From the IMG/VR virus record IMGVR_UViG_2565956830_000008, positions 1 through 64,000 of that record: DNA of 64,000 nucleotides. One strand, given 5' to 3'. This DNA comes from a virus (Duplodnaviria > Caudoviricetes). How positions within the stretch are numbered: the stretch's first letter is position 1; the number at the start of each line of letters is the position of its first letter. Below are positions 3,129 to 30,359 of this stretch, piece by piece. The notes beneath the pieces were generated by a model. That model was not told where the DNA came from. It did not search any database and was given only the letters and a program-made list of their open reading frames with translations. The position numbers and the translations under genes are program-made.

Positions 3129-3188
3129 GCATCCCTCCGATGGAGTGGAATCCGGCTCGGCCCAAAACCAGCAGCGGCCCCCAGTTTA
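3129..3188 (-). promoter_or_regulatory. Late leader element copy 1
   Basis: TAAACT-N11-CTGGTTTTGGGCCG, then 29 nt to ATG; CTCC/GGAG pairing over the RBS. Confidence 0.75.
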
Positions 3189-3225
3189 GGGCCCGGCGAT
3201 CACCGCTCCGGGGCCCTGGCAACGT

Positions 3226-3573
3226 TCAGTCGAGGTCGATCACGCCGCCCGGATCGGGGACAGGGTCGGTCGGCGGTGCGTACCCGGACAGCCGCCGGGC
3301 GACGGCGTCCGGCAGGATCGCGGCGAGCGCGAGATAGACGGCCTGTACCTCGGCCTGCTCTGCCGCTTCCCGCGCGGCCCGCGCCGTCTCCCGCTCGGCC
3401 TGGATGACGCCGAGAGCCGCCTGATACTCCTCTGCGCTCAGCCCCACCGCGCCCTCGGGCTCGGGCATGCTCACGCTTCCGGTGATCGTCACCTCGCGGA
3501 GCCGCCCGTCGGAGAACTGGTAGTAGCGCGTCGTCTGGTCCGTCGTCTGGTCCACAGCAGCCGCCCCAATCAT
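3226..3573 (-). CDS. Putative tail fibre chaperone/accessory protein
   Basis: ATGA-coupled to the upstream fibre gene; paralog of 2120-2413. Confidence 0.55.
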   Translation of the reverse strand: MIGAAAVDQTTDQTTRYYQFSDGRLREVTITGSVSMPEPEGAVGLSAEEYQAALGVIQAERETARAAREAAEQAEVQAVYLALAAILPDAVARRLSGYAPPTDPVPDPGGVIDLD

Positions 3574-4409
3574 GTCTGCGGAATGGAGAACAGCCACACC
3601 CGGATCGTGGCCTGGATACGGTTGTACGTAGAGCCCCCGGCGCCCCGGCCCAGCGTGACGTTCAGGTTGATCGTCTGCGAGCCACCGGCCGGGATAACGG
3701 TGTTGTGGAACACCGTGTTCTGCGACTGCCAGGCCGTGATGCCTGAACTGCCGGTGTTCTTCATGTAGGTGAGGTCGTCGCCGTTGATGCCGGCCATGGC
3801 CGCGCCGCCGTTGGCTGGCAGGTCGAACCCCACGTCGAGGCTCCGCAGGACGATCCCGAACGCTTCCCGGCAGGGATCCGGATTGGTGATGGTGACGCTG
3901 TACGTCTCCACCGTCGTCTCGGTGGTCGGCACCGCTCGCGGACTGAACGTGTCGTTGGGAGCGACCTCGGCGAACGCGGACCGGAACGGCGGGTCGGTCT
4001 TCAACTGCCCGGTCGTCGGGTCGCAGTAGACGCCGCCGCCGTTCGCCGTGATGCTGCACGTGAACGGCCACGTCGCCCGGTTGACCCGCAAGGGCGCGCT
4101 CGCCGAGCCGTCACCGAGAAGACCACAGCCCGTCTGGACCGTCGCCGCGCCCGCGGGTACGAACAGCCCGTTCGCGTCAACGACCAGGTTGTTGCCGGGC
4201 GTCGAGGAGATGTCAGCGCCGATCACACCGGTCGACGGGTCGAAGTTGATACCAGGCCCGGCAGAGAGGCACCCCCGGACCTCGGCGCAGTTCGTGACCG
4301 CGTTCACCGTGTACGGGTTAATCGCACTGCCCGACCCTGTGACTGTCGTGTTCGTGCCCGCCTGCACAACGCAGTTGCAGTCACTGCCGCCGCACTGACA
4401 CCTGGCCAA
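3570..4409 (-). CDS. Tail fibre/tail-tip protein, Cys-rich N-terminus
   Basis: Likely TTG start (MARCQCGG) after GAGGTGG RBS; paralog of 2427-3128. Confidence 0.6.
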   Translation of the reverse strand: MARCQCGGSDCNCVVQAGTNTTVTGSGSAINPYTVNAVTNCAEVRGCLSAGPGINFDPSTGVIGADISSTPGNNLVVDANGLFVPAGAATVQTGCGLLGDGSASAPLRVNRATWPFTCSITANGGGVYCDPTTGQLKTDPPFRSAFAEVAPNDTFSPRAVPTTETTVETYSVTITNPDPCREAFGIVLRSLDVGFDLPANGGAAMAGINGDDLTYMKNTGSSGITAWQSQNTVFHNTVIPAGGSQTINLNVTLGRGAGGSTYNRIQATIRVWLFSIPQT

Positions 4410-4473
4410 GACGACCACCTCTCAGGGGTGCGTTCGTGGCCCGGCCCAGAACCAGCAGCTGCCGCTCAGTCTA
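4410..4473 (-). promoter_or_regulatory. Late leader element copy 2
   Basis: TAGACT-N12-CTGGTTCTGGGCCG, then 32 nt to TTG. Confidence 0.75.
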
Positions 4474-4495
4474 GGATGCGCCGGCCGACGTCCGG

Positions 4496-5215
4496 TCAGC
4501 CGTAGAGGTGCACGATCACGCGCCCGTCGCCGCCTTTGCCGCCGTCGACGGCGCCCCCGAACGAGACGGCGCCACCCGCGCCCCCGCCGAAGCCGCGCGG
4601 CCCGAGCCCGTTGCCCTGCGTGGTGCGGCCCAGGCCGCCCGTGCCGAGCTGGGCGTCGCCGCCGAAGCCCGCCATGGCGAAGCTGCCGTTCAGGCGGATC
4701 GCCGACCCGGAGGCGCCGCCGCCGATCGCGAAGTCACCCGTACCTCCGCTTGGTCCGGCGATACCCTGCGAGGTATTCGCGGTCGTCCCCGACCCCATGT
4801 TGTTGGTGCCGCCGCCCCCACCGTTCGCGATGACGAAGCTGCCGAACGACGACGGAGCACCGTCGCCGCCGTCCGTGGTCGACGTGCCCGCAGCGCCGCC
4901 CACACCGACCTTGATGGGCACCGACGCGCCAAGGTCGGCCACGTCGATCAGCGACTTCGAGTAGCCGCCCCCAGCGCCTCCAGGACGCGCGATCGCCTCG
5001 CCCGTGTCCGCGTTGGCGCCGGCCGACCCGCCGCCGGCCCCCTGCACTTCCACTTCCACGCGAGCCAGCCACGGATAGTTGGCCTTGGTGAACGTGTACG
5101 TGCCTGCCCCGAAGTAGAGGGTCTGCCGAAGACCCATCGTCCCTGGGATCAGGCACAGTTCACCGGTCGTCGGGTCGACGGTGAAGTAGTCCCCACACGC
5201 ACACGCTTTCGCCAC
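4496..5215 (-). CDS. Glycine-rich tail fibre/minor tail protein
   Basis: GTG start (MAKACACG); VEVQGAGGG...GGAGGGY...[11 protein letters not shown] glycine-rich domain typical of phage tails. Confidence 0.75.
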
Positions 5216-5276
5216 TGGAATGACCCCACATGCTCGGTTCCATGCCCGGCCCAAAACCAGCGGCGCAACGAGTCTA
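5216..5276 (-). promoter_or_regulatory. Late leader element copy 3
   Basis: TAGACT-N10-CTGGTTTTGGGCCG, then 31 nt to GTG; TGGAA/TTCCA stem abutting the start codon. Confidence 0.75.
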
Positions 5277-5286
5277 CGAGCGCCGA

Positions 5287-5919
5287 TCAGGCGAGCGTGC
5301 CCACGGCGAAGAGGTGCACCTTGACCCCGGCCGCAGCCGGTACCGCCGTCTGCCCACCCAGAAGCACGCCCGTCGACTGCCACACCCGCGCCACGGCCTG
5401 CGTCGTGGTCACAGCCTCTAGCGTCACGAACAGGCCCCGGCTGTCGCTCGGGTCGGGATCGACAGCGAGCGCGCTGATGACCGGAGGTTGCGTGAAGGCC
5501 TGCGAGAAGACCCACGTCGCCCGCCCGTCGGCCGCCGTGTTGACCACCTTCGCGGCCGGGGGAGCTCCGGGCGGTCCCGGAGGCCCCTGCGGGCCCGGCA
5601 CCGTGGAGTCCGCCCCGGGCGGTCCGGGCGGACCAGGCGGGCCCGGCATGGTCGAGGCGGCCCCTGGCGGACCGGGCGGACCAGGCGGACCAGGCACGGT
5701 CGAGGCGGCCCCCGGCGGTCCGGGTGGACCGGGCGGGCCCGGCACAGTCGAGGCCTCCCCGGGCGGCCCCGGCGGTCCCGGCTGGCCCTGTTCGCCACGC
5801 TGCCCCTGGTCACCCTGTCGGCCGCGCGGCCCCGGCTGCCTCGCCGTGCGCTGCGCCTCCCGCAACATGCCCGCGAGCGGGTTGTCCGGGATGAGTCTCG
5901 ACGGTGGTCGGTACGCCAT
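5287..5919 (-). CDS. Collagen-like minor tail protein
   Basis: ATG 5919 (MAYRPP); Gly-X-Y run with tandem ST(V/M)[12 protein letters not shown] units. Confidence 0.85.
5560..5790 (-). repeat. ~48-bp in-frame tandem repeat encoding collagen units
   Basis: About 4-5 copies of the 16-aa [16 protein letters not shown] unit. Confidence 0.8.
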
Positions 5920-5921
5920 GG

Positions 5922-6950
5922 CTAGTTGTCCTCCGAGCTGCTCACTGGGCCGAACTGCACCTTCACCGACTCGCCGTCGCCGTCCGCCGACACGCTCACG
6001 CCCGTGATCTTCATGCGCTGCGAGATGTTCCGGCACGTTGCGGTCGTCGCCACGTCCACGCACCAGCCCGGCACGAGGCGTGCGATGTCCACGCCCGTGT
6101 CTGGGGACAATGTGACCTCCGACGAGTCGATGTAGACCGGCACCGGCAGCGACGCGTTCAGCCGCGACTGGGCTGCCGCATCCGCGCTGACCTGGTCCTT
6201 GATGCTCGTGTCCTGGATGCTCCGCTCGATGAGCCCGTAGTAGGGGTGCACCCCGCCGGCCACGCCCACGATCCCCGAGCCGGTGTCGCCGTAGACGGCC
6301 CACTTCGTCGCCATGGCCGTGCCGTCCTCCTCGACGCTCAGACCGTCCGGAAGGTCGACATCAGTGATCAGGCCGACGCTGGCGCTCCAGTCGTCCGGCA
6401 TCAGCAGCAGCGTCTCCCCGACCGCGGTGAAGTCGAGGCCGGTCTCCGCCAGGTTGCGCAGGTAGTCACCCGTCTGCCCGATGTTCTCCTGGTAGTCGCG
6501 CGAGCCAATGACTCCCGACTGCGCGAGCACAGTCACGCTGTGGCCCGGATCGTCCGGGGCGAAGCCGTCCTCGATCAGCCACTGCGCGATGTCCGTCAGG
6601 TCGGTATTCGTGAACGTCGTGGACTCGTGAGGGGTCCGCCGGTTCAGCACCGAGACGATGTCGGCCGCTGAGATCTGGACCGTGCCCGCCCCCCACTTCG
6701 GTATGAGGATCTGGCCGCCCCAGACGTACGAGCCGTTGCGGTAGATGTGCACCCAGTGCCTCATGGCTCGCATGTCGCCGAGGACGCCGCAGCAGTCGAC
6801 GTCCGGCTCGATCGTCAGGCTCGCCGTGGAGGCGTCGTTCAGGACACGGCTCCAGTCGACCTTCGTGATGACCTGGGCCTGGGTGAGGATCGCCCCGCCC
6901 CGGTCCGCGATGTAGGCGGCGTACTCGGCCGCGCACCCGAGGCCGGCCAT
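5922..6950 (-). CDS. Minor tail protein (ReqiPepy6 Gp37-like/hub)
   Basis: ATG 6950 (MAGLGC); [10 protein letters not shown] and IYRNG..VWGG motifs; second gene after the tape measure. Confidence 0.7.
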
Positions 6951-8290
6951 CAGAGAGCCCGCCCCGACACGGCGAAGGACAGCACAGCGTCCGAAGCGGG
7001 CGCCACGAAGGCATCCGTCTCCAGCAGCAGGCAGTATTCGGCGCAGTCCAGCACGGGCCACGACGGCGGCGCCCCGTCCCTACCGAACACTGTCGTCGCC
7101 GACGAGCAGTCGCCGCCGCAGTAGACCGCAGCCCGCCCTGTCTGCCCGTCCAGGACGAGTTCCGACCCGGCGGCCAGGTAGCTCAACGTCCACTGCGCGT
7201 ACGGCTCACAGCGCTTCCTCTCGGCGATCTCCTCGCACGTCAAGCCCGCGTCGGCGCTGGTCTTCTGGAACAGGCTGATCGTCAACCTCCGCAGGTCGCT
7301 GCTGCCCGCGTACACGCTGATGAGCGGCACATCGTCCATCCACCCCGGCCGGCCGGACAGGTCGATGGCGTACGCGGCCGAGTTCACCGCGAGCGACTCG
7401 CAGAAGCACGTCACCGGCGAGGAGGGAACCGGCGGCGCCACGCTGCCGCAGGCCGGATCGCCGCAGCCGTCCTGGCTGTCCTGGCACTGCTTGAGGCGAC
7501 AGTCGGTGCACTGCGGAATCCAGTCGGGAAGCCGCGGGTCGTGGATGCACCACTCAATGCACTCGTCATCGTCGTCGGTCGGCAGCGCGACACTCAGCAG
7601 CTCGACCCCGTCCGTGTACGCGAACGGGCTCGCCGCCGTCATCGTCCACTCCACGGTGATGACGTCCGCGCCGAGAGAGCACGTACCGCCCGAGCATGAG
7701 CCGTTGCCGTTGCGCGCGGTGACCTTCGGGCCGGACGTCAACGCCACCCGGCGGAACGTCCTGCGGTGCGCCCGGTTGAACTCGTCCCGGGTCATCGTCT
7801 CCCCCGGGCAGCACGCGTACATGTCCACGCAGTCCCCACCGCACTGCGACCCGGTGCAGCCCTGCAACGCCGCCTTGAGGAACTGAAGCCCGTACTCGAC
7901 GCCGCAGCACGTCGCACCGAGCAGGATCCCGGTGAACGTCATCTCCCGCGGTTGCACCCGGGCCGGACCGAGCGACCCGCCGCCCGTCACCGCGGTGCTC
8001 ACCGACCGCTCCACAGGGAAGTCGTCCACGCCGTCGACGCTCAGCAGCAGCACGCCGGCGAACTCGAGACTCTCCGGCGCATCCGGGTCGTACCACTCGG
8101 CCGGGGTCAACGGGTCGTCGGGCGTGGTGTACGGCTGCCCGTCGTCGTCCAGGACCGCCGAGGTGATTGTCTCGCAGCTACAGATCGCCGACCCGCTCGT
8201 GAGCGGCGAGCCGACTGTCTCCAGGTACGCGCGGAGGCGGGCGTGGTTGACCACCTCCACACCGCCCACACTCACGAAATCAGGGAGCAC
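6950..8290 (-). CDS. Distal tail (Dit-like) minor tail protein, Cys-rich
   Basis: 446 aa immediately after the tape measure; REMTFTG, VEWTMTAASPFAY, LVLDG motifs. Confidence 0.7.
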   Translation of the reverse strand: MLPDFVSVGGVEVVNHARLRAYLETVGSPLTSGSAICSCETITSAVLDDDGQPYTTPDDPLTPAEWYDPDAPESLEFAGVLLLSVDGVDDFPVERSVSTAVTGGGSLGPARVQPREMTFTGILLGATCCGVEYGLQFLKAALQGCTGSQCGGDCVDMYACCPGETMTRDEFNRAHRRTFRRVALTSGPKVTARNGNGSCSGGTCSLGADVITVEWTMTAASPFAYTDGVELLSVALPTDDDDECIEWCIHDPRLPDWIPQCTDCRLKQCQDSQDGCGDPACGSVAPPVPSSPVTCFCESLAVNSAAYAIDLSGRPGWMDDVPLISVYAGSSDLRRLTISLFQKTSADAGLTCEEIAERKRCEPYAQWTLSYLAAGSELVLDGQTGRAAVYCGGDCSSATTVFGRDGAPPSWPVLDCAEYCLLLETDAFVAPASDAVLSFAVSGRAL

Positions 8291-8303
8291 GAGAACACCT
8301 CTC

Positions 8304-11300
8304 TCAAGTCAGGTTCGCCACCGCGATGCGCCGCAGGATCACGCGGGCTGTCTGCTCCGGGTCGTTGGCCGCCTGCACGGTGATGTTGTTCGTGACCGAC
8401 GCGCCGATCGCGGTACGCGCCGCGCTGAACGCGCTGCCGCTGGGCTGCCCGGAGCCGGGGAGGACGAGGCCGGCGCCGCTGAGGTCGCCGAGGGACGGCT
8501 GAACCACCGGCCCGGACACCGTGCTGGCGAGGCTGGAGAGCGGCTGGCTGACCGCGTCCGTGAGACGGCGGGCCGACGACCTTGCCGCCTTCGCCAGGTC
8601 GGCCAGGCGGCCAAGGAAACCGTCGTGCAGTCCCAGGCCGGTGAGGTCGCCGATCTTCCGGAACACGGTCGAGGGCGAGTGGATCCCGAGCGCGGCACGG
8701 ATGCTCTTCTGCATGGCCTTGGCGATCGAGACCATGAGGTCTTCGATGTCCTTCTGCTGGCCCTTGAGGCCGGCGAGGAAGCCTTTGGATGCCTGCTTGC
8801 CCGCGTCGAACAGGTCGTCGGCCGCGCTCTTGCCGAGCGAGTTCGTCGCCGACACGAGCTGCTTCTGGAGGTCGTTGATCTCCTTCAAGCTGGCCGTCGA
8901 CTGGTTCGACAGGAACTCGGCGAGCTGGGCGCCCTGCTGCGGGCCGAGCGCGATGATCTGCGACAGCAAGTCCTTACGCAGGCCGCGCTTGGACAGGTCG
9001 TTGATCTGCTTCGTGAAGTCCTTCACCTGGGAGACGGCCTGGTCCAGGCCCTCGGTGATGTTGAACAGGCTCACGCCGCCCTGCGTGAGGTTCTGGAGGC
9101 TGAACGACTGGAGCGCCGACGCCGCGGTGTCGGTGGCGAACTTCTGCGCGTCGGCGATCTGCTTCGCGATGGCGTCCCGCTGGTTCGCGAGCGACGTCAG
9201 CTTCTTGTTGCCGTCCGAGACCAGCTTCAGCAGCGAGTCGTCCAGCTTGGTGTTCTTACCCTTGAAGGCGGCGATGATGGACTGGCTGAGCTTCTGCGCG
9301 GTCGCCTTGATCTGGTCGACCGAGCCAGTCATACCGATGATGAAGCCCTCGCCGACGCCCTTACCGATCGCGATGAAAACCTTCGACGGCGAGTTGATCT
9401 TCAGGACGCTTTTCGCGGACTTGATCGCCGATCCGACGACTTCCTTCGCGGCCGAAGCGATGGACCCGGCCATCGCCTTGACGCCGTTGATCATGCCTTG
9501 GATGAGGTTGCGGCCCACGGACACGAGTGCCGACGCGGCCCCCGACAGCGCGCCTTTGATCTTCCCCGGCAGGCCGGAGAAGAACGAGGTGAGCTGCGAG
9601 CCGGCCGACCTGGCGGCGCCGAGCATGGCCGAGCCCGCCGAGCGCAGCACCGACGCCGCCCGGCCCGGCAGGGACGCGAGGACCGACACCGCGCGGCCCG
9701 GCAGCTGCGAGAAGAACGAGACGACGGCCGAGATCCCCGTCGACACCGCCGACTTGCCCGCGTTCCACGCCGACGTGAACAAGCGGACCAGCAGCGACCC
9801 GAGCGAGGCGAGCGCGTTCACGATCAGCCCCGGCACGCGGGTGAACAGCAGGATGACCAGGCCGATTTCGACGCCGATGGCCGTGCCCACGGCCTGAAGC
9901 GCCAGATGGAAGAGGTTGCTCAGCAGCCCTGGCAGCGCCTGCAACGCTGTCAGGATCATCCCCGGAAGACCCTGGAAGAACGTGACAACTGCGGTGAAAG
10001 CGGTCGATATCAGGGAGCCGAGTGCCGACAGGCCCGCCACGATCAGCGACGGCAGATTCGTGATGAACGTGACGACCGACGTCAACGCGGTCAACAGGCC
10101 GGTCAGGATGCCGACGACTGCCTGAATGATCGGCACGACGATGTTGATCGCCGTCCACGACACGAACGCCGCAGCGATCTGGAGCACCGGCGCCAGCAGG
10201 TTCGTGATCGTCACCAGCAGCGGGGCCAGGGCGGCGACGAGCTGCGCGACCGGCGGCAGGATCGGAACGATCGCCTGCAAGATCGCCGCGAACGCTTCGA
10301 CGAGGGGCGGCAGGATCGGCAGCAGCGCGTTCGTGAGCGCGGTGATCAGCGGCACCAGGGCGACGACGACCTGAGCGATCACGTCCGCGACCTGCGTCAG
10401 GACCGGACCGAGGATCTGGAAGACCTGCGCGATCGCCTGCCCGATGCCAGTCGCGAGCGGCGTCAGGGCCGTGACGAGCTGAACGAAGGCGTCAGCCAGG
10501 GGCGGCAGGATCGGCATGAGCGCGCCGACGACAGCCTGAATGATCGGCTGGAAGGCCTGCGCCAGTGTCGACAGAACGGGGGCGAGCGCGGTCGCCAGGA
10601 TCGACACGAGCTGCCCGGCGAGCGGCAGCAGCGGGGCGAGCGCGGTGATGACCTGCGCTATCGCCTGCCCGAGCGGGCCGAGGCTGGGGCCGATCGACTC
10701 GAAGGCGTCGGACAGGGCGGCAGCGACGGTCTGAAGGCTCGGCGCGATCGCCGCCAGGGCGGGGCCGAGCGCGTTGATCAGGCCGGTGATCGCCGGGCCG
10801 AGGGTCGCGAAGACCGGGCCGAGGGCGGGCGCGATCTGCCCGATCTGCGTCACCAGCGCCGACAGGATCGGCCCCAGCTGCTGGGCGATCGTCCCGATCG
10901 TCGCGAAGATGTTCCCGACCGCCGACTGGCCGGAGGCGGTCTTCAGGAATGCCGCGACCTGCCCGGTGATCGTCTGGATGTTCGCGAGGAACCCGGCGCC
11001 GACGTTGCCGGCCGCCGAGAACACGCTGGACAGGATCGAGCCGACGTTCTGCGCGATCCCGCCGAGCTGTTGGAAGACCGTGAGCGCGTTCTGGATCCAC
11101 GTCAGCCCGCTGCCTGCCTTGGTGGCCCGTTCCAGGAACGCGGCGAGTTTGTTGGCGACGCCGTCGATCGCGCTACCCAGGCCGGTGAACCCAGGAAGGG
11201 TCGACCGGGTGAAGTTCGCGACGGCGGTCAGCAGCCGCTCGATGCTGTCGGACCTGATCCCGGCGATCTCGGTCTTCAGCCCGGCGAACACGCCCTGGAC

Positions 11301-12335: not shown

Positions 12336-12399
12336 CGGGCAACCCCGCTTTCGCGTGTGGTTGCCCGGCCCTGAACCAGTCGGCTCCGGCCACCCCTTA
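12336..12399 (-). promoter_or_regulatory. Late leader element copy 4
   Basis: CTGGTTCAGGGCCG, then 30 nt to GTG; strong CGGGCAACC/GGTTGCCCG stem with CGC-GAAA-GCG cap; -10 degenerate (TAAGGG). Confidence 0.7.
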
Positions 12400-12432
12400 C
12401 GACCTGGGGTAACCGGCTTTCAAGACTATCTG

Positions 12433-12760
12433 CTAGCGGCCTCTCAGCCGCGCATCCTCACTGGCCATCGCAGCCATGAGGGCCTGGGCGTCGTTGACAT
12501 TCATCGCGGCCGCTCTCGGCCGCTCAGACGCCCCCGTACGCGCCCGGTAGCCCTTCGGCGGCGCGTACAACTCAGCCCGCTTCCGGGCCCGTTCGCTGTC
12601 GTCTTTCGCCCCGGCCTCGATCTGCGCCTCGGCCGCGTTGAGCATCCGCTTCAGCGGCCACTCGTGCGGGTTGATGCCCTGGAGGGCGAGGGCCCCGTCC
12701 CAGGCCTCCCACCAGGCCGCGACCTGGGCGCAGAGCCTGAAGACGACCCAGTAGGGCGGT
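12433..12760 (-). CDS. Tail assembly chaperone, -1 frameshift extension (GT-like)
   Basis: Open -1 frame from ...CCC TAC TGG (PYWVVFRLCAQ...) to the stop at 12433, between chaperone and tape measure. Confidence 0.7.
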
Positions 12761-15044: not shown

Positions 15045-15047
15045 GGG

Positions 15048-21756: not shown

Positions 21757-22400
21757 CAGTCGCTCACCTTTTTGAAGCGGAAGTTCGTGGCCCAGACGAC
21801 TTTCTGTGAGGTGGTTCCGGCGTCGGTACGCCATGACCCGTCAACGCGGATCGTTGTCGGGCCGGCCACCTGGTACAGCGCCGCCGCCGAGGCGTTGGCC
21901 TGGATTCCGGTCGTGCCCGTGGCGGTCTGATCGGTGAACAGGATGATTCGCCGTGCAGTCAGCGGGACCTGGGCGCCGGCGGTGACGTCGAAGACTCGGG
22001 CGTCGATGATCGCGTTGCTGACACCGGCCGCCCACCCGATGGACCCCTGAACGTCGGCGACCACCTCGTAGATGCCGGCCTCCGGCAGCACCAGCTGCGC
22101 CCCGGTGACGGGAACCCACGTGTTGGCGGCAGCAGCGTCAAGGGACACAACCCCCGAGGTCTGCCCGGATACGGGCGTGAGGCGGGCGCCGACCGTCCAC
22201 GTCTCCGGGCAGGCCCCCGCCGCGGGGGCCGTCACGTCTACGTCGACTGACCGCGCAGTGCCGACTGCTGTTCCGGGGGCGATGCCGGCCAGTTCGGTGC
22301 GCGGCACCAGCAGTCCTGACGCCGTCTGTTCGAGGGCGTTACAGGGCGCCGGATCCAGACGCGGGACGACGCGAGTTGATCCGCAGCAGCTACCGGCCAT
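21756..22400 (-). CDS. Putative fibre protein (conserved N-terminus, variable head)
   Basis: 214 aa; LPEAGIYEV motif; ends KVSD. Confidence 0.6.
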   Translation of the reverse strand: MAGSCCGSTRVVPRLDPAPCNALEQTASGLLVPRTELAGIAPGTAVGTARSVDVDVTAPAAGACPETWTVGARLTPVSGQTSGVVSLDAAAANTWVPVTGAQLVLPEAGIYEVVADVQGSIGWAAGVSNAIIDARVFDVTAGAQVPLTARRIILFTDQTATGTTGIQANASAAALYQVAGPTTIRVDGSWRTDAGTTSQKVVWATNFRFKKVSD

Positions 22401-22612
22401 CAGTCACCGACCGGGGCCGGGGGGAAAGGCGAGGTAGAGGCGTCCGGCAGGCTCGCGAGATAGGCGGCCTCGTCGACCTCCACATAGCCGAGCTCGAAGT
22501 ACGGCGCCGGGTCCCTCAGGTTGTAGACGACCTGCACGCCCTCGCCGTCCTTCATGAAGTAGCGCGGGCCACCCGCCGGGCGCGGCGTGGTCTCGGGGGT
22601 CTCGTCGCTCAT
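22400..22612 (-). CDS. Small putative fibre chaperone/accessory protein
   Basis: 70 aa from ATG 22612 (MSDETP); TGATG-coupled to the next gene. Confidence 0.5.
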   Translation of the reverse strand: MSDETPETTPRPAGGPRYFMKDGEGVQVVYNLRDPAPYFELGYVEVDEAAYLASLPDASTSPFPPAPVGD

Positions 22613-22619
22613 CAGCGCC

Positions 22620-24608
22620 TCACTTCCAGGTCCAGTTGAGGAGGTAGTTCGCGGCGGCTGTAGCGCCCGCGAATTCGGCGGCAGCAAGGGCGGTGTCGCT
22701 GTCCTGGGCGACGGACCACGTCATGGTCATCCCGGTCGGGATCGTCACGTTCGTGCCGTCGCTCATCGTGGCCAGGACGCTGCCGCTCAGGACGCTCAGG
22801 GTGACGCTCTGCAGGCTCGGGAACGCTGCGGCGATGTCCTGTGCCGTGGTGCCGGTGACGTTGCGGACGCCCGTACTCAGCGGCGCAGGCAGGACGTCGG
22901 CGGTGGTGCACTCAACGGGCGCGGTCGGCGTGTACGGCTTGGTGAGGTCACCGTCCAGGTAGGTGCCGAGCAGCTCGGGAGCGGCCCCTCCACACGGGTC
23001 GACAGCCCACAGTTCGGTGTACGTGGCGTCACCGAGGCCGTCGCCGTCGGTGTCGTCGCACCCGCAGCGTTCGACGATCTGCCGCGTGCAGGACTGGCAG
23101 GCGCCGACAGTCCCGGTCGGCGTGTAGGCGGTGGTCCCGTCGAGAGCGGTGTCCCCGGCGGCCGTGACCGCGCCGGTGGTGTTGTCGACGGTCCAGTGCC
23201 GCAGGAACTGAGTCACTGTGCCGTCCGCCGCCGTATCGCACAGCACCTGCTGAAGGTGGTCGATCTCCTCGGCTGAGGCGTCGCACACCCCGACCGTGCC
23301 GCTCGGCGTATACGCGGCCCCGGCAAGGGTGTAGTCCGAGAAGCCGACGACGGCGCCGTTCTCGTCGCGCCGGAAGTCGCGGACGAACGGGGTCACGGTG
23401 CCGTCCGCCGCGGTGTCGCACAGCTGGACGAGGTCCTGTTCCGGCTGGTCCACTCCATCCGGGCACACGCTGACCGTGCCCTGCGGGGTGTACGTGGTGC
23501 CGGTGGTGGCGTCGACGAGGCGCACGGAGGCGATCGCGCCGCTCGCGTCGTAGCTGTACTCGATGAGGACCAGGCCGACGACGTTGCCAGCCGCGTCCAC
23601 ATCACAGAAGGTCCCCGAGACCTGGATGGAGCGGGAGTCGCCGCATGCGAGGGTCCCGGCCGGCGGAGCCCCTGCGGAGAACGCGCCAGTCGTGAGATTG
23701 ATCCAGCCCTCGGAGGTGACGGCGCCGGTGCAGTCCCGTACCACGGTGACGGCGATCGGCGTCCCGTCCGCGAGGCACAGCCCGACCGTGGCCGTCGGAG
23801 TGGTCGGAGAGGCGCAGTCGCTGACGGGCAGGCACGCGCCGACGGTGCCGGTCGGGGTGTAGGCGGTCACGCCATCGAGGAGAGCGTCCGCGGTGGTGGT
23901 CGTCGTGCCGTCGCTGGTGAACGTCCGCAGGAACGGCACGCTGCTGCCGTCCGCCTGGACGTCGCACAGGAGTTGCGTCGAGCGGTCCGCCGCGGCGGGG
24001 CACGGGACGATAGCGGGCGCGGTGAGCGTCGCGCCGGTCTCCGCGTCAAGGTAGGAGACGGCCGGGTCGCCGCACGCAGCGCACTTCAGGACTGCCGCAG
24101 TGCGCGTGGCTCCGCCGCCGGCGTCGTAGCAGACCGTTCCCAGGACGACCGGGGTGTCCGCGGTGGCGTCCGGGCAGTCGGCGGGGGCCGTCGGCGTGTA
24201 AGGCTGCGCGAAGTCCCCGTCTCGGTAAGTGCCGAGGAGCTGCGGGGCGCCGCCGTCGCAGGGGTCGAGCGCCCACACCTCGACGTAGGTGACGTCTCCG
24301 GTGCCGTCGGCGTTGGTGTCGTCGCAGCGGGTGCGCGTGCTGATCTGCCGGGCGCACTGGTCGCTCTGGGGGCCGCAGACGCCGAGCGTGCCGGTCGGCG
24401 TGTACGGGGCGCCAGTCGTCGGGTTGACGATCCGTGTCCCGACCCGGGCGCCGCTGCTCGTGTCGTAGACGGGCTCGACGAGGGCGAGGCCGGCCACGGT
24501 GCCGTCCGCGAGGACGTCGCACAGCAGCACCGTTTCCACGTCGACCCGCGCGGCGGCCGGAGTGGCGCTCATGATGATGGGGGTCTGGCCGCAGCCGCAA
24601 CCGCTCAC
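22620..24608 (-). CDS. Cys/Thr/Asp-rich repeat virion protein
   Basis: 662 aa; repeated LCD.xADG, YTPTGTVG.C and CDDT.xDG modules. Confidence 0.7.
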   Translation of the reverse strand: MSGCGCGQTPIIMSATPAAARVDVETVLLCDVLADGTVAGLALVEPVYDTSSGARVGTRIVNPTTGAPYTPTGTLGVCGPQSDQCARQISTRTRCDDTNADGTGDVTYVEVWALDPCDGGAPQLLGTYRDGDFAQPYTPTAPADCPDATADTPVVLGTVCYDAGGGATRTAAVLKCAACGDPAVSYLDAETGATLTAPAIVPCPAAADRSTQLLCDVQADGSSVPFLRTFTSDGTTTTTADALLDGVTAYTPTGTVGACLPVSDCASPTTPTATVGLCLADGTPIAVTVVRDCTGAVTSEGWINLTTGAFSAGAPPAGTLACGDSRSIQVSGTFCDVDAAGNVVGLVLIEYSYDASGAIASVRLVDATTGTTYTPQGTVSVCPDGVDQPEQDLVQLCDTAADGTVTPFVRDFRRDENGAVVGFSDYTLAGAAYTPSGTVGVCDASAEEIDHLQQVLCDTAADGTVTQFLRHWTVDNTTGAVTAAGDTALDGTTAYTPTGTVGACQSCTRQIVERCGCDDTDGDGLGDATYTELWAVDPCGGAAPELLGTYLDGDLTKPYTPTAPVECTTADVLPAPLSTGVRNVTGTTAQDIAAAFPSLQSVTLSVLSGSVLATMSDGTNVTIPTGMTMTWSVAQDSDTALAAAEFAGATAAANYLLNWTWK

Positions 24609-27310
24609 AGGTCTACTCCCTCAGTCCAGTTGACGACGACAGCACCCGTCGTCGCGGTGATCGTCAGTGGCCCGATGAGCCGCACATCCATGTCTCTGGT
24701 GATGGACCACTGGGCGGTCTCGCCGTCGAAGAGCGCGCTCGTGCCGTCAGCGGTGGTGACGGTGCCGGTGCCGCCTCGGGCGGTCGCCTGGATAGCGCGC
24801 AGCGTGCCGTACTGGGAGGCGTCCCACACCTTGCCCGGGACGAGCTGTACGCGGTGTGCCTGGACGCCTGCGGGGCGCTCGACGACCGGGTCCGGCGCGT
24901 CGCAGTCGACCGGCGCAACCGGCGTGTACGGCGCCGACAGGTCGCAGGTGTACGTGCCGAGCGGGGTGGGCGTGCCCGTGCAGTCGACGCCGAGGAGTTC
25001 GACGTACCAGGCGTCGGCGATGCCGTCGCCGTCCGTGTCGTCGCACTTCTCCGCCTGCACGATGTTCCGTGCCGGGCACGGTGGTTCGGGGCAGCACTCC
25101 CCGCCGCCGGCCTGGCACTGGCCGGGCTCGCCGGTGACCGTGTACGGCTGCCCGTCGAGGGTGGTGTCCGTGACGGTGAGGACGGCGCCGGTCTCGCAGT
25201 CCGTGATGACGTTGCGCACGAACTGCGTAGCGCATCCGGTCTGGTCGTAGACGACGGTTGCGTGGAACTGGGACAGCTGCCACGAGGTGTGGCGCACCCC
25301 CGGGCAGATGCCGCCGCTGTCGTCGTAGGCGTCGAACGCGAGCAGGACGGTGATGTTCCCGGCGGCGAGGTCGGCGGCCGGGACGTCGGCCTCGACCGTG
25401 AGCGTCCCCGTCCACCCGGCGGGAGTGTTCTTCGGGGCGAGGTCCAGGGCGATGCGGTTCGCGTCGCCGGGCCCGTTGTAGAGGCCGATGAAACCGGTGG
25501 AGGCGCACCCGTCATCCGGGCCGAGCTGGGCGGCGTCGACCTGCACCGACACGTGGGCGGTACCGGCGTCGCAGACCGGCCGCGGCGCCTGGATGGTCGC
25601 CGCGGCGGTGCGCACAGTGCCGGTCGTGCCCGGCTGCGGCCCCGCAGCCTGCGGGAGGGTGAGCGTGCCGCCGTCCCACAGCACTTGGGCGCCGGCCGTG
25701 GCCACACCGGTGCTGTACGGGTAGTACGGGCCTGGGTCGTTGTCTGTGACGGTCGGGGTCGGCGTGCCGTCGGTCGGCAGGTCACACAGGAGGAGCGTGC
25801 TGCTGTTGCGGCATGGCTCCGTGGGCGCGCCTTCGCAGACGTCGACGGTGCCCGTCGGCTGGTAGTTCGCCCCGGCGAGCGTGTAGTCCGTGTGCCCGAC
25901 GATCTGCCCGTTCTCGTCGCGCCGGTAGTCGCGGATGAACCGGGTCACGGTGCCGTCCGCTGCGATGTCGCAGAGGACGACGAGGTCTTGTTCCGGCTGG
26001 TCGACGCCAGCCGGGCAGGTCGTGATCGTGCCCTGCGCGGTGTAGGTCTGGCCGGTGGTGGCGTCGACGAGGCGGACGCTCGAGACGCTGCCGTCTGCCG
26101 CGTAGGTGTACTCGATCAGGACCAGGCCGACGACGTTCCCGTTCGCGTCGACGTCGCAGAAGGTGCCGGTCGTTGTGATGCTGCGGGACTCGCCGCACGC
26201 CATGACCCCGGCTGGGGGCTGTCCGGTCGAGTAGGCGCCGGTCGTGAGGTTGATCCAGCCCTCTTCGCGGGTGACGCCCTGGCAGTCGCGGGTGACGACG
26301 ACGGCGATCGGGGTCCCGTCGGCGAGACACAAGCCCACGGTGGCGGCCGGTTCGCGCGGCTGGTCGCAGTCCGAGGTCTGGGCGCAGTCGCGGATGGTGC
26401 CGGACACGATGTGCGGCGTCTCACCGTCGAGCGCGACGTCTACGAAGGACGCGGTCCCGTCGGACAGGAACGTGAACCGGCGCAGGAAGGGGCCGCCGTC
26501 ATCGCACAGGAGTTGCGTATGGCATTGCACCGATCCGTACTCGCAGTCGACTGGCGCAACCGGCGTGTACGGCTTCGACGGGTCGTCCTGGTAGGTGAGG
26601 ACCAGCTCAGTCGTGCCGTCCTGCTTGACGCACCACAGCTCGCTGTACGTGGTGTCGGCGGCGCCGTCCCCGGTGGTGTCGTCGCAGCGGGTCACACAGA
26701 TCGTGTCGACGCAGTCCTGGGTGCACACGCCGACCGTGCCGGTCACGATGTGCGGGGTCTGCCCGTCCAGGGCGACATCCTCGAACGTCGCCTGTCCGTT
26801 CAGGAAGGTGTAGCGGCGCAGGAACGGGCCGCTGGCGTGGCACAGCAGCTGGGTGTGGCACTCGACGCTGCCGTACTCGCAGTCGACCGGGCTGGTCGGC
26901 GTGTAGGGCGTTGAAGGGTCATCCTGGTAGGTGAGGACCAGCTCGGTCGTGCCGTCCTGCTTGACGCACCACAGCTCGCTGTACGTGGTGTCGGCAGCAC
27001 CGTCCCCGGTGGTGTCGTCGCAGCGGGTGACACAGATCGTGTCGACACAGCCGCCGCAGCCGTCACACGGCGCGGCATCGGCCGGGGCGGGGCCCACGGT
27101 GAAAGCGCCGGTGGCTGGGTCGACCCAGCCGACGACCTGCGGCTGGGTCGGCGGCGCGTCGCAACCGGTGCACCCGGACTCGACGACGACGATGATCGTG
27201 GTGCAGTCCGGGCGGCACAGCAGCGTCGAGGTGATCGACGGGGCGCAGCACGCTTCCCCTGTGCCGCCACCGCCGCCGCCACAGGCGCATGGGATGGGCG
27301 TTACTGCCAT
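24605..27310 (-). CDS. Large Cys/Thr/Asp-rich repeat virion protein
   Basis: ~901 aa; shares a ~170-aa block with 22620-24608; three CDDTxGDGxAD motifs. Confidence 0.7.
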   Translation of the reverse strand: MAVTPIPCACGGGGGGTGEACCAPSITSTLLCRPDCTTIIVVVESGCTGCDAPPTQPQVVGWVDPATGAFTVGPAPADAAPCDGCGGCVDTICVTRCDDTTGDGAADTTYSELWCVKQDGTTELVLTYQDDPSTPYTPTSPVDCEYGSVECHTQLLCHASGPFLRRYTFLNGQATFEDVALDGQTPHIVTGTVGVCTQDCVDTICVTRCDDTTGDGAADTTYSELWCVKQDGTTELVLTYQDDPSKPYTPVAPVDCEYGSVQCHTQLLCDDGGPFLRRFTFLSDGTASFVDVALDGETPHIVSGTIRDCAQTSDCDQPREPAATVGLCLADGTPIAVVVTRDCQGVTREEGWINLTTGAYSTGQPPAGVMACGESRSITTTGTFCDVDANGNVVGLVLIEYTYAADGSVSSVRLVDATTGQTYTAQGTITTCPAGVDQPEQDLVVLCDIAADGTVTRFIRDYRRDENGQIVGHTDYTLAGANYQPTGTVDVCEGAPTEPCRNSSTLLLCDLPTDGTPTPTVTDNDPGPYYPYSTGVATAGAQVLWDGGTLTLPQAAGPQPGTTGTVRTAAATIQAPRPVCDAGTAHVSVQVDAAQLGPDDGCASTGFIGLYNGPGDANRIALDLAPKNTPAGWTGTLTVEADVPAADLAAGNITVLLAFDAYDDSGGICPGVRHTSWQLSQFHATVVYDQTGCATQFVRNVITDCETGAVLTVTDTTLDGQPYTVTGEPGQCQAGGGECCPEPPCPARNIVQAEKCDDTDGDGIADAWYVELLGVDCTGTPTPLGTYTCDLSAPYTPVAPVDCDAPDPVVERPAGVQAHRVQLVPGKVWDASQYGTLRAIQATARGGTGTVTTADGTSALFDGETAQWSITRDMDVRLIGPLTITATTGAVVVNWTEGVDL
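26395..27050 (-). repeat. ~335-bp in-frame tandem duplication
   Basis: Two near-identical units CVDTICVTRCDDTTGDGAADTTYSELW...TPHIV.GT. Confidence 0.85.
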
Positions 27311-27750
27311 CACTCCACCTCCGGGTGCGCCTGGCGGCGGTGGGTGTCACGGCCGCGCGCGGTACCGAACGGCCGGGAGCAGACGTCGCAGACGATGGCC
27401 GCGCCCTCCCCCTCTGAGGGCGCGGCACCAGCCGGGGCCGGCCGCTGCTCCGGCTCCGGCAGCTGAACAGCGTCGGGCCCGTACGCTGCTTCGGGAACCT
27501 CGGGCAGAGGCTCGCCCGGGACGCCGGTGTGCCACTGCGACGCGGCGGCGAGGGCCTCGTCTTCGAGCGGGGACCGGTAGGGATGCCCGTCGACGGTGGC
27601 TCCGATGAGGAGCTCCTCGGGCATGTGCGTGAACAGGTGAGGCGGGACCGAGAACGCGCTCGGGGCGCAGGTGCGGACCTTCGGCGTCTGCCGGACGGCC
27701 CACTTGGCGAACTCCACGCGCATGGTGCTCGACGGCTGCACGGTGATCAT
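27310..27750 (-). CDS. Head-region protein with C-terminal C2H2 zinc finger
   Basis: TGATG-coupled start (MITVQP); CDVC...THRRQAH. Confidence 0.6.
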   Translation of the reverse strand: MITVQPSSTMRVEFAKWAVRQTPKVRTCAPSAFSVPPHLFTHMPEELLIGATVDGHPYRSPLEDEALAAASQWHTGVPGEPLPEVPEAAYGPDAVQLPEPEQRPAPAGAAPSEGEGAAIVCDVCSRPFGTARGRDTHRRQAHPEVE

Positions 27751-28583
27751 CAGCACGGACACAGCGACACCCTTATGGCTGCTGCCTCGCAGCACGCGAC
27801 TTCGATGACGAAGCTGCGCTCGGCGAGGACGAAACGGTCGTTGGTCGTGATGCGGAAGCTCTCCGCGTCGGTGCCGGGCACGATCGCGGGCGCCTCGCGG
27901 CGGACCCGGAGGGGCCCAGTCACGTACAGCCACGCTTCGCCGTCCGGGGCCTGCGTGCAGTCCGCACCGCCCACGTTCAGGGCGTAACCGGCCCCGAAGA
28001 TGACGCCGTTGCCCATGAGGGTCTCCGGGCACTGGGTGTCCCGCGTGCGGGTGACCACGTTGCAGCAGCCCATCAGGGCTGCGGCGGCGGCCGGGACGTG
28101 GAGGAGGCCCTGCCCGCCGTAGTTTTCGGCGAGCCACCCTTCGAGCGCGGCCACGCCCTGCGCGACGGGGACTGCGGCACCGGGGGTGAGGTCCACGGAC
28201 ATGTCGCAGAGGACGTCCCGCATGAACCACTCTTCCAGCGCCCGCTGTTCTCCCATGCGGAGCGTCTCGCGGGCGTGCTGCACGGCCTCGTCGTACGGCC
28301 AGCCGACCGTGCCGCAGGTGACGCCGGCGTAGATCGTGATCGGCGAGGCGGAGCACACGCCGGGCCGCTCGAACGTCTTCATCGTCGGGCCGGGTGTGCT
28401 GCTGCCGTCGGGGCACCACTCCCAGTCGTGCGCCGCCGCGCAGGACAGCGGCATCCACTCGGTGCCGAGAAGCTCGTGCACGTCGGCCACGTCTTCGATC
28501 TCGACGCAACCGCCGAGGATGCCGTACGGCGACGGGTTACCCGGGATCGGGTCGACGCGCTTACGGAGTCCGGCTGCTGGCAT
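27750..28583 (-). CDS. Putative minor capsid/decoration protein
   Basis: ATG 28583 with GAGGTGAGG RBS; directly after the major capsid gene. Confidence 0.55.
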   Translation of the reverse strand: MPAAGLRKRVDPIPGNPSPYGILGGCVEIEDVADVHELLGTEWMPLSCAAAHDWEWCPDGSSTPGPTMKTFERPGVCSASPITIYAGVTCGTVGWPYDEAVQHARETLRMGEQRALEEWFMRDVLCDMSVDLTPGAAVPVAQGVAALEGWLAENYGGQGLLHVPAAAAALMGCCNVVTRTRDTQCPETLMGNGVIFGAGYALNVGGADCTQAPDGEAWLYVTGPLRVRREAPAIVPGTDAESFRITTNDRFVLAERSFVIEVACCEAAAIRVSLCPC

Positions 28584-28606
28584 CTGCCTCACCTCCTCTC
28601 ATCCGG

Positions 28607-28638
28607 GCAGCCCCGGCAGGGCAGAGGGCCGGGGCTGC
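28607..28638 (-). terminator. GC-rich hairpin after the major capsid gene
   Basis: GCAGCCCCGGC/GCCGGGGCTGC inverted repeat. Confidence 0.55.
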
Positions 28639-28652
28639 GGATGGGGTGGGGG

Positions 28653-30296
28653 TCAGCTGCTGCCTGCGGCGCAGACCAGTTCGAGCTGGGCGCCGGTTGC
28701 GCCGTCCGGGCAGACCGGGACGGTGATGAGGCGGGTGTCCACCGAGCGGTCGACGAGGGCGACGCACTCCTCCGCGAACAGCGCGGTGTAGTCGTTCGTG
28801 ACGAACTTCGTGCTGTCGTGAACGACGCCCAAGTTGACCTCCTCGCCACGGCCGATCTGGATCGAACCGGACGGGTAGACCAGGAAGTTCACGTTGGCCG
28901 GCCACTCGGTGGCCGGGGTGGCGGCGCCGATGTCGGACGGGACAGCCGGGGACAGGCCGCGCGCGAACTGCACCCGCACACCCAGCGTGGAGAACACGTC
29001 CTGGATGCAGGTCGGGGACAGGTCGCAGATGTTGACGCCGTTCTGCCGCGCCAGGTCGGACAGGAAGAGGTTCCGCGACCACCACGGGAACACGACTTCG
29101 AGGGCGATCGTGTCACAGAGGCTGTGGCGCTCGATCATGTCGGCGGCCTGGAGGGCGACGGCGGCGTAGATCGCCGACAGCGCGCCGAACGTGGGGGCCA
29201 TGACGACCGGCGTCGCGGTCTGAAGCGCCTGCTGGAACAGGACCTGCTTGATGCGGATCTCGTGCGCCACCATCGCGTTGCGCAGGTACCAGGCGACCAG
29301 CTCCGGGAAGTGGCGCTGCGTCAGGATGCCCGCCTCCAGGCACACACCGACGGCGTCACAGCGGACCTCGACCGGGTCCGGGCACGGGATCCGGAAGCAC
29401 GGCTTGGTGGCGCCGGAGATGTCGTCGGCCTCGGTGTGGACCCACGTCATCGAGGAAACGTCGAGGCTGAGCGGCTTGTAGTAGCGCAGACCACCGCGCG
29501 ACAGCTGGATCTCCGGGGCGTCCCACAGCATGTCGGGGCAGGCCACGCCAGTGATGTCATACAAGGTCTCGCTGGGCGCGCACCAGCCGCCGGAGGCGAC
29601 GAGGTCACCCTGCGGGAGCCGCGCCTGGTTCTGGGCAGCGAGCGCCACGGTGGTGCCCTCGGGCGCCGAGCTGGAATCGGTGACGACCAGGTCCTCCGCG
29701 AACGGGTGCCGGTAGGAGATGACCTGCCCCACGCCACCGCCGGCCGTCTTCAGGGCGTTGGCGCGGCTGATGATCCCGGTGACGACCTGCCCGAAGTCGA
29801 GCGGAGAACCCGGGGTGTACCCGGGAACGTCCACGGCCGCGGTGATGGTCGTGCCCGGAGCGGGCGGCTCCGGCAGCACGCGCGGCTGGGAGGCGCGCAC
29901 GGCACCCAGGTTCAGGACGGTCCGCTTCACGAGGGACGCGGAGGCGGACACCGCAGGCTCCGCCTCCGGCTCGGGCTCGGCCGGCGTGTCCTCATCGGCC
30001 GGGGCGGCGGGTGCCTCCGGCGCTTGCGGAGCCGCCGGGTCGTCGCCGCGAACCTTCGCCGCGAGCTGCTCGATCTCCGCAGCGGTGGCCCGCGCAGCGT
30101 CGATGCGGTCCTGCTGCTCCTGCCGCATGGCCTCGATACCCGCGGTGAGGGAGCGCAGCGCCTTGACGTCGTCGGGGGTGACGAGGTTGGACGTGGCCCT
30201 GGTGTCGAAGGCCTGAACGGCGCCTTCAAGGGCGGCGGCAAGCTGCTCGTCGTCCAGGGTGCCGAGGTCTTCGGGAAGCTCGAACGGCTCAGGCAT
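28653..30296 (-). CDS. Major capsid protein with N-terminal scaffold-like coiled coil
   Basis: 547 aa; LVASGGWCAPSETLYD, KPCFRIPCP and DSTKFVTNDYTALFAEE motifs of actinophage capsids. Confidence 0.9.
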   Translation of the reverse strand: MPEPFELPEDLGTLDDEQLAAALEGAVQAFDTRATSNLVTPDDVKALRSLTAGIEAMRQEQQDRIDAARATAAEIEQLAAKVRGDDPAAPQAPEAPAAPADEDTPAEPEPEAEPAVSASASLVKRTVLNLGAVRASQPRVLPEPPAPGTTITAAVDVPGYTPGSPLDFGQVVTGIISRANALKTAGGGVGQVISYRHPFAEDLVVTDSSSAPEGTTVALAAQNQARLPQGDLVASGGWCAPSETLYDITGVACPDMLWDAPEIQLSRGGLRYYKPLSLDVSSMTWVHTEADDISGATKPCFRIPCPDPVEVRCDAVGVCLEAGILTQRHFPELVAWYLRNAMVAHEIRIKQVLFQQALQTATPVVMAPTFGALSAIYAAVALQAADMIERHSLCDTIALEVVFPWWSRNLFLSDLARQNGVNICDLSPTCIQDVFSTLGVRVQFARGLSPAVPSDIGAATPATEWPANVNFLVYPSGSIQIGRGEEVNLGVVHDSTKFVTNDYTALFAEECVALVDRSVDTRLITVPVCPDGATGAQLELVCAAGSS

Positions 30297-30359
30297 GACC
30301 GGTGTCTCCTAGGGATCAAGGAGACTCGGCCCTAAACCAGCAGTCAGAAACGAATATTA
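30297..30359 (-). promoter_or_regulatory. Late leader element copy 7
   Basis: TAATAT-N13-CTGGTTTAGGGCCG, then 30 nt to ATG; GTCTCCT/AGGAGAC stem buries the RBS. Confidence 0.8.

Follow-up and report, generated by a model that had tools for sequence, protein, structure and literature searches.

Control of late genes in actinobacteriophages is largely unknown. The closest described parallel to the leaders analysed here comes from phage Mu, in which Com binds a short hairpin adjoining the translation-inhibition structure of mom and is thought to melt that structure (PMC6483171). Here we describe a repeated leader element in a 64,000-nt stretch of phage DNA (positions 1 to 64,000 of IMG/VR record IMGVR_UViG_2565956830_000008, hereafter the window), where the motif CTGGTTNNGGGCCG precedes seven late genes and forms the top of a 21-nt hairpin (P1) that is followed, in several of the leaders, by a variable second hairpin over the ribosome-binding site (RBS; P2). 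As in Mu, a short sequence-specific hairpin stands directly upstream of a start-hiding hairpin, here P1 and then P2, with nucleotides shared between them. Unlike Mu, where a single gene is the target, each phage has 7–10 targets; the sequences are unrelated, no Com zinc ribbon was found and one gene class lacks the inhibitory hairpin.

Other actinobacteriophages contain repeated intergenic motifs of unknown function, including an 18-bp motif in Microbacterium phages of Clusters EC and EI and start-associated motifs in Clusters K and EF (PMC7302621). These phages have the same capsid family as the phage in the window, and their motifs, as described there, are likewise asymmetric, in one orientation and placed in short intergenic gaps 21–30 bp upstream of start codons. 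TAGaCT, the commonest promoter-like box in our leaders, opens the consensus of Cluster EC, but what follows the box differs, and most Cluster EC copies are found among non-structural genes. Supplementary figure S10 apart, PMC7302621 describes neither a hairpin nor covariation for the Cluster EC motifs. The Samy prophage (PMC11302927), also considered for comparison, is by its description there an unrelated phage. A published description of our motif was not found in the literature.

Two better-known arrangements resemble the locus in part. At boxB in the nut sites of lambda, the target of N, and at put in HK022, a small leader hairpin is recognized by a protein or by RNA polymerase to act on elongation, with two sites per phage. 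The present element is also a small conserved hairpin in the promoter-proximal transcript, but it is tied to the RBS and present at 7–10 sites, and no canonical terminators occur on the coding strand between 2000 and 17000. The stoperators of L5 are DNA sites of the immunity repressor, the early promoter included, and are numerous, asymmetric, intergenic and in one orientation. Our copies share these traits in an actinophage, but none is found in the immunity region of the related Streptomyces phage TurkishDelight, and covariation points to RNA.

The motif CTGGTTNNGGGCCG has seven exact matches in the window (at 3158, 4442, 5247, 12366, 13218, 16476 and 30327), all on the minus strand, while none of 100 shuffled sequences contained any. 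Allowing up to two mismatches gave 21 matches compared with 12.4 expected, with no clear excess past the exact seven, and the core TGGTTNNGGGCC recovered the identical seven copies. The whole 11.76-Mb genome holds 12 exact copies (reversed-pattern control, 4); the five outside the window lie within open reading frames, lack the extended flanks and are chance copies in coding DNA. Distances from the motif end to the start codon in the seven units are 30, 28, 30, 30, 31, 32 and 29 nt, in agreement with an earlier note on this DNA that had placed seven copies 28–32 nt before late-gene starts. Each copy marks the start of a putative late transcription unit of a temperate Streptomyces siphophage.

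The genes preceded by the motif encode the capsid protein, the major tail protein, a chaperone-like protein, the tape measure and three fibre-like proteins. Names given to them in the earlier note held for the capsid (phrog_777), major tail (phrog_792) and tape measure genes, all identified by PHROGs. The chaperone-like gene is named solely through its TurkishDelight orthologue, which is annotated as a chaperone. Among the three distal genes, called tail-tip genes in that note, the one at 4496–5215 matches tail-fibre families and the other two have no PHROG match. All three encode cysteine-rich N-termini (4496–5215, 3570–4409 and 2427–3128, minus strand), with CxCGGxxCNC in two and CACGDYF in the third, which reappear in relatives including a Planotetraspora prophage.

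Alignment of 105 related copies revealed a conserved block of 21 nt (positions –4 to +16, the C of CTGGTT being 0), with any base allowed at position 6 and T or A at position 7. The motif is thus the invariant top of a hairpin, P1, and the linear 14-mer of the earlier note did not stand. The structure assigned to P1 consists of three basal pairs, a bulge, C0–G13, a bulged U1, G2–C12, G3–C11, possibly two U·G pairs and a triloop. Stem covariation was found: across 102 distinct sequences the structure is 96.1% paired, with 29 double-change cells compared with 3.6 ± 1.7 in shuffled alignments (0 of 500 reaching 29) and a score of 0.149 for the true register compared with at most 0.064 for slid controls. 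Pair 0:13 is C–G in 98 of the 105 copies, A–U in five, U–A in one and C·A in one; pair –3:15 is C–G in 88, U–A in 12 and U·G in five; pair –2:14 is C–G in 71, U·G in 11 and U–A in seven; and pair –4:16 is G–C in 85, A–U in four and G·U in one. The 15–16 exceptions at –4:16 and –2:14 all have one extra 5'-flank nucleotide, with the register shifted by one. Compensatory change occurs at all four variable pairs, while the upper four pairs are invariant, meaning that covariation neither supports nor contradicts them.

Three observations point to a sense-strand RNA structure rather than a duplex DNA site. First, basal stems differ among copies of the same genome (ACU/AGU, GUC/GAC, GCC/GGC and GCU/AGC in the window). 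Second, G·U cells outnumber C·A cells by 16 to 1. Third, an independent set among the matches listed in a scan of many genomes agrees: of 34 copies that the search pattern had not itself selected, 33 are paired at –3:15 and 32 at 0:13, with U–A, G–C and A–U variants included. Variant stems recur in different gene classes and in different phages. P1 alone is weak (–1.4 to –5.2 kcal/mol), and the idea that the motif folds well by itself was rejected, the 21-mer being no better than shuffled sequences (z = +0.82). Pairing with the genome's own 16S rRNA was also rejected (–31.5 kcal/mol compared with –29.7 ± 2.4 for shuffles, 37 of 200 being as good). The earlier note had not recognized the motif, and covariance models of Rfam release 15 gave no match at gathering score over the whole window, with only weak, unrelated matches (E ≥ 0.3) in the two leader regions searched.

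A promoter-like box precedes the element. In six window copies a TAnnnT box lies 13, 11, 11, 10, 12 and 11 nt upstream of the motif, and in the tape-measure copy the box (TAGTCT) lies 43 nt upstream with a hairpin, P0, between. Of the 105 non-identical copies, 78 have such a box ending 10–15 nt upstream of the C in CTGGTT, compared with a background expectation of 0.5%; the commonest hexamers are TAGACT (20), TACCCT (17) and TAAGCT (9). Most of the remaining 27 copies have a box at 16–63 nt, with a P0 hairpin or a first tandem copy between, and seven of the 105 have none within 80 nt upstream. No –35 signal was found in the 105 aligned copies, and a consensus scan returned no canonical sigma-70 promoter. 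These results match the earlier description of a box 10–13 nt upstream in six of seven copies without a shared –35, and the strand-specific, intergenic placement behind the box bears out the view that the motif is positioned to be transcribed. In Streptosporangiales hosts the hexamers differ (TAGCAT, TAGAAT and TAGGCT) while the element downstream is unchanged, which fits a host-adapted –10 element. Transcripts start about 7 nt after a –10 box; if this rule applies, the late transcripts are predicted to begin 0–4 nt before P1. A separate proposal, that the box itself sits in a hairpin loop, was rejected (14 of 78 observed, 17.6 expected).

The spacing of the motif is constant to the RBS and not to the box, even where an extra hairpin or a tandem copy lies between. 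P0 is GC-rich in tape-measure leaders, and two capsid leaders (L019 and L020) have one as well. Tandem copies lie 26–39 nt apart in TurkishDelight (L009, 16117/16156 and 11739/11765) and in L025 (8460/8495), where the first keeps the box spacing and the second the RBS spacing. The major-tail P1 of L025 is preceded by a decayed first copy.

Downstream of P1, the sequence varies and folds differently from gene to gene. In the window alone, folding of the downstream leader gave z = –2.6 for the capsid, –3.0 for the tape measure, –1.2 for the major tail and about 0 for the rest, in line with the earlier remark that these hairpins are weaker in copies 1–3. We then classed leaders by downstream gene and scored pairing of the Shine–Dalgarno (SD) sequence in the 73 of 105 leaders with a recognizable SD of at least 4 nt. 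Mean pairing probability was 0.92 for major-tail, 0.90 for capsid and 0.74 for tape-measure leaders, and 0.73 over all 73 compared with 0.59 in 75 control starts from the same phages (p = 6e-5).

P2 covaries in the 19 major-tail leaders, in which a helix from nt 14 has 83.6% of cells paired, seven of nine pairs with double changes and 34 double-change cells compared with 16.7 ± 4.3 in shuffles (0 of 500); slid controls were much lower. In the consensus structure of 15 tape-measure leaders, CCGGGC of the motif pairs with GCCCGG right before the GTG start, and three pairs covary. When 3' halves were swapped between orthologues of the major-tail, capsid or tape-measure class, native arms folded more strongly than chimeric arms in 74–80% of comparisons. 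The earlier claim of a hairpin hiding the RBS in every copy thus gained covariation support in major-tail leaders and some in tape-measure leaders, and failed as a universal rule, mean SD pairing in chaperone leaders being 0.30. The motif as a universal pairing partner of the start region was also rejected (duplex –17.8 kcal/mol compared with –16.7 for controls, p = 0.07).

The features of the seven units are as follows, in window coordinates, with the basis of each assignment in brackets.

30354–30359, minus: capsid unit, –10-type box TAATAT (box spacing; 78 of 105 related copies).
30324–30344, minus: capsid unit, P1 hairpin with basal stem ACU/AGU (motif match, covariation).
30294–30323, minus: capsid unit, putative P2 with AGGAG buried in it, plus the start ATG of the capsid gene, 28653–30296 (fold z = –2.56; SD pairing 0.99).
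16501–16506, minus: major-tail unit, –10-type box TAGACT (sequence position).
16473–16493, minus: major-tail unit, P1 hairpin with basal stem GUC/GAC (motif, covariation, shared pairing).
16445–16472, minus: major-tail unit, putative P2 (GACUCCUG/CAGGAGUC, nt 14–16 common to P1) and ATG of gene 15755–16447 (covariation, 19 leaders).
13243–13248, minus: chaperone unit, –10-type box TACTCT (sequence position).
13215–13235, minus: chaperone unit, P1 hairpin (motif match, covariation).
13185–13214, minus: chaperone unit, purine-rich open leader without RBS hairpin, and GTG of the tail-assembly-chaperone-like gene, 12651–13187 (SD pairing 0.06).
12423–12428, minus: tape-measure unit, distal –10-type box TAGTCT (relatives keep a box at 37–49 nt).
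12384–12422, minus: tape-measure unit, P0, the extra hairpin between box and P1 (relatives have hairpins of different sequence in the same place).
12363–12384, minus: tape-measure unit, P1 hairpin with basal stem shifted by one nucleotide (motif match, register analysis).
12333–12362, minus: tape-measure unit, putative P2, with 5' arm CCGGGCAACC overlapping the P1 3' strand, and GTG of gene 8304–12335 (z = –3.04; 15-leader consensus).
5271–5276, minus: tail-fibre-like unit 1, –10-type box TAGACT (sequence position).
5244–5264, minus: tail-fibre-like unit 1, P1 hairpin (motif match, covariation).
5213–5243, minus: tail-fibre-like unit 1, leader and GTG of gene 4496–5215 (tail fibre families).
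4468–4473, minus: unit 2, –10-type box TAGACT (sequence position).
4439–4459, minus: unit 2, P1 hairpin (motif match, covariation).
4407–4438, minus: unit 2, leader and TTG of gene 3570–4409 (Cys-rich N-terminus, no family match).
3183–3188, minus: unit 3, –10-type box TAAACT (sequence position).
3155–3175, minus: unit 3, P1 hairpin with basal stem GCU/AGC (motif match, covariation).
3126–3154, minus: unit 3, leader with paired GGAGG and ATG of gene 2427–3128 (Cys-rich N-terminus, no family match).

P1 and P2 overlap. P2 begins at nt 14–17, and the shared nucleotides are nt 14–16 in major-tail and capsid leaders and nt 11–16 in tape-measure leaders. Of the 57 cells at nt 14–16 of major-tail leaders, 54 permit pairing to the 5' flank and 53 to the 3' end of P2; where nt 14–16 are GAC, the 5' flank is GUC in seven of seven leaders and the P2 3' end is GUC in six of seven. 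Because these nucleotides pair either way, the two hairpins are mutually exclusive at their bases. P1 is absent from minimum-energy folds of whole leaders, and forcing it costs 11.6 kcal/mol on average.

The element is widespread among related phages. TurkishDelight, which is 81% identical to the window in the capsid gene only, has nine exact copies, all in the structural arm (12.9–30.6 kb) and at syntenic gaps, with tandem copies in two leaders. This phage has no reverse-orientation copy and no copy in the repressor–cro gap, and elsewhere in 34–84 kb the best matches to the 21-nt consensus have five mismatches. Based on the absence of a reverse copy here and the chance nature of the five extra genomic copies, a host regulon or antisense partner was rejected. 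Across 20 related Streptomyces prophage loci, all 75 exact copies are on the coding strand, and five IMG/VR records have 3–10 exact copies each, in one orientation. Scanning one genome per species with an 18-base version gave at least 118 stretches; among the matches listed, multiple copies, arranged in the same way, are present in Streptomyces, Kitasatospora, Embleya, Nonomuraea, Planotetraspora and Planomonospora. All eight copies in the Planotetraspora genome fall within 29 kb, and the single Sphaerisporangium copy follows the same box. Single matches elsewhere that were inspected (Kribbella, Tsukamurella and four other bacteria) lie in coding DNA or have no upstream box, and were taken as chance.

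A homologous leader, with box, variant 21-nt element and RBS hairpin, is found in the Woodruffvirus phages phiSAJS1, TP1604, Xkcd426 and Mischief19, the capsid proteins of which are 49–55% identical. Their element differs from P1 by three substitutions in the loop region and precedes the capsid, major tail and tape measure genes only. Many other late genes of Woodruffvirus (L060, L061, L062 and L041) have box-only leaders without P1, in which the box runs straight into GGT(G) to give TAAGCTGGTG or TAGACTGGT and lies about 30 nt before an RBS of the GAAGGGAC type.

In TurkishDelight, the annotated start of the tailspike gene gp33 (4129 in L009) falls inside P1 (4122–4135). Judged from the sequence, translation more likely starts at an ATG that follows the motif by 25 nt and is preceded by an RBS, and knowledge of P1 would improve start-site annotation in these phages.

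By analogy with Com and mom, we tentatively favor, with a little less than even confidence, a late promoter followed by a 5' leader operator hairpin that is clamped by a factor to open the RBS. Under this proposal, a host-type –10 box (TAnnnT without –35) would start transcripts 0–4 nt before P1, which would present a 3-bp covarying basal stem, an invariant upper stem with two single-base bulges and a small loop with one free base. The variable P2 would follow directly, its 3' arm holding the SD sequence, and only one of the two hairpins could be complete at a time, P1 alone being weak and full P2 strong. A sequence-specific factor, either a protein of the phage structural module or a conserved host component, would clamp P1, shorten P2 and open the RBS, so that translation of virion proteins would depend on its presence. 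Near-terminal P1 may also protect the mRNA; 5'-end protection is likely a second role, and likely the main role in chaperone leaders, which lack P2. The box as a promoter, the transcript start, the RNA nature of P1 in vivo, the existence of the factor and the direction of its effect are inferred.

P1 is a newly found, covariation-supported RNA motif of a known general kind, the phage leader operator hairpin. It is unusual in preceding 7–10 genes per phage, in the invariance of its top across phages of two host orders and in sharing nucleotides with the RBS hairpin. The earlier analogy with Mu Com gained from the finding that the motif is itself a short hairpin of this type, and lost in that the Com zinc ribbon (PF10122) was found in none of five phage records at E ≤ 1. 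More speculatively, P1 could define a new class of cis-regulatory RNA, with a two-state P1/P2 switch controlling a late-mRNA regulon in actinophages of Streptomycetales and Streptosporangiales hosts (at least two orders), read either by a virion-module protein feeding back on late messages or by an exploited host machine; we consider this possible and rather doubtful. If a switch operates, it would do for many genes what Com does for mom alone, give a way to a new RNA-binding regulator and offer a compact part for controlled expression in Streptomyces. The repeated motif now has a testable anatomy: a promoter box precedes an operator hairpin of defined pairing, with which an RBS hairpin competes. 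Natural compensatory variants specify the informative mutants.

Several results weigh against the clamped-operator proposal. Chaperone leaders (n = 18) have P1 and an open RBS, which means that opening P2 cannot be the only role of P1. In the GC-rich DNA of these phages, SD sequences of control starts are also fairly well paired, as the mean given above indicates. Native arms were no better than chimeric arms in the classes DIT, MT2 and TAC (46–54%). Forcing P1 leaves the SD paired within a shortened P2, the probability in major-tail leaders falling only from 0.92 to 0.79. The leaders are orthologous, and covariation counts are not independent events. The –10 assignment is a prediction from sequence, and the P1-binding protein is a postulate; the search for a Com zinc ribbon was negative.

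To look for a trans-acting factor, we compared gene content among six TurkishDelight-type phages, two Streptosporangiales prophages and phiSAJS1. The genes that all of these carriers share are confined to the virion module, with no early regulator among them, which suggests that the P1 reader would be a virion-module protein or a conserved host component. Each of the six TurkishDelight-type phages encodes two cysteine-containing proteins: one small, Arg-rich and with the pattern CxxC...HKxC (13528–13758 in L055, the genome to which the window belongs), and one of 253 aa with a CPxCPCC...CPCS cluster (L055 15950–16711). In L055 both are encoded 13.5–16.7 kb past the high end of the window. Neither matches a Pfam family, and the Atlas neighbors of the small protein are unnamed; its match to Woodruffvirus gp2 is weak and was rejected as spurious. 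The small protein, which is zinc-finger-like, is at most a weak lead as a P1 binder. Against such a role, this only non-structural candidate is absent from two of five other P1-bearing genomes, and in at least two of the three that have it, it lies on a contig apart from the P1 copies.

The strongest rival, which we nonetheless judge unlikely, is that P1 is only a 5'-terminal hairpin protecting against 5'-end-dependent decay, with no dedicated regulator and with P2 incidental or separate. Protection of mRNA 5' ends by a hairpin requires a short 5' overhang, and the tight spacing of box to P1 (10–15 nt in 78 of 105) predicts 0–4 unpaired 5' nucleotides; where P1 is not terminal, as in tape-measure leaders, P0 occupies the terminal place. 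The limitation of the Woodruffvirus element to capsid, major tail and tape measure genes, which give abundant or very long messages, is also in its favor. Simple protection does not account for an upper stem, bulges and most of a loop that are invariant in 102 sequences and two host orders while the basal stem is free, nor for the weakness of P1, and it leaves the three-way covariation with P2 without explanation.

Processive antitermination, which the earlier note had offered beside translational activation, is improbable. P1 would then be a loading site similar to boxB or put, letting polymerase resist terminators in the 27-kb late region. A small conserved hairpin in the promoter-proximal part of several transcripts is as expected for such a site, three leaders (two of TurkishDelight, one of L025) hold tandem copies, and recognition by a conserved host partner, for instance RNA polymerase, would be in keeping with a P1 that does not vary between host orders. 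But the terminator search gave it no support: a scan for canonical intrinsic terminators found none on the coding strand from 2000 to 17000 (terminators without a T run would escape it), its three terminator-like T-run sites all being on the other strand. A NusG paralogue (PF02357) was found in none of the five phage records, the only gene in the genome being a host gene on another contig. Each unit, moreover, has its own promoter box, and antitermination requires neither a fixed distance from motif to RBS nor nucleotides shared with an RBS hairpin.

It is highly improbable that the motif is an asymmetric DNA operator downstream of late promoters, bound in the manner of a stoperator by a late-gene repressor or activator of the phage. 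The asymmetry of the site, its single orientation to transcription, its intergenic position and its overlap with the expected start region would suit an operator. However, complementary double changes 13–20 nt apart differ between copies of one genome, the 16-to-1 ratio of G·U to C·A cells points to pairing on the sense strand, and duplex DNA recognition does not usually demand near-continuous invariance over some 14 positions. TurkishDelight copies are also confined to the structural arm with none near repressor–cro, and the carrier phages have no early regulator in common.

Least probable of all is that P1, alone or with P2, is a host ribonuclease processing site at which long late transcripts are cut to stable messages of gene length, as by RNase III in T7: repeated conserved hairpins between late genes, a conserved host enzyme that would explain P1 invariance across hosts and two major-tail copies that keep P1 without a TAnnnT box within 80 nt (L019 9956 and L024 963) fit this account, but the strong linkage to TAnnnT points to primary 5' ends, and the eight bulged pairs of P1 make a short substrate for RNase III.

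The window is phage DNA throughout, with a G+C content of 69.6%. In transcription order, its minus strand encodes the small and large terminase subunits, portal, a MuF/protease fusion and the 547-aa capsid protein, followed by large paralogues and a glycosyltransferase, then the major tail protein, an adaptor, the chaperone-like protein and the tape measure, and finally minor tail proteins, the three fibre-like proteins and an endolysin. The three large paralogous genes (493, 662 and 902 aa) form one cluster between capsid and tail genes (19567–27313, minus strand) and are missing from TurkishDelight; the two largest match phrog_18824, of unknown function, and the 493-aa paralogue has no PHROG match. 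A GT4 glycosyltransferase gene (17704–19143) adjoins them. In the 1,252-aa MuF/protease fusion (30809–34567, minus strand), residues 280–456 also match PHROG families named RNA ligase. A tRNA-Gly gene with anticodon TCC (42944–43018, minus strand) lies with the genes upstream of the terminase.

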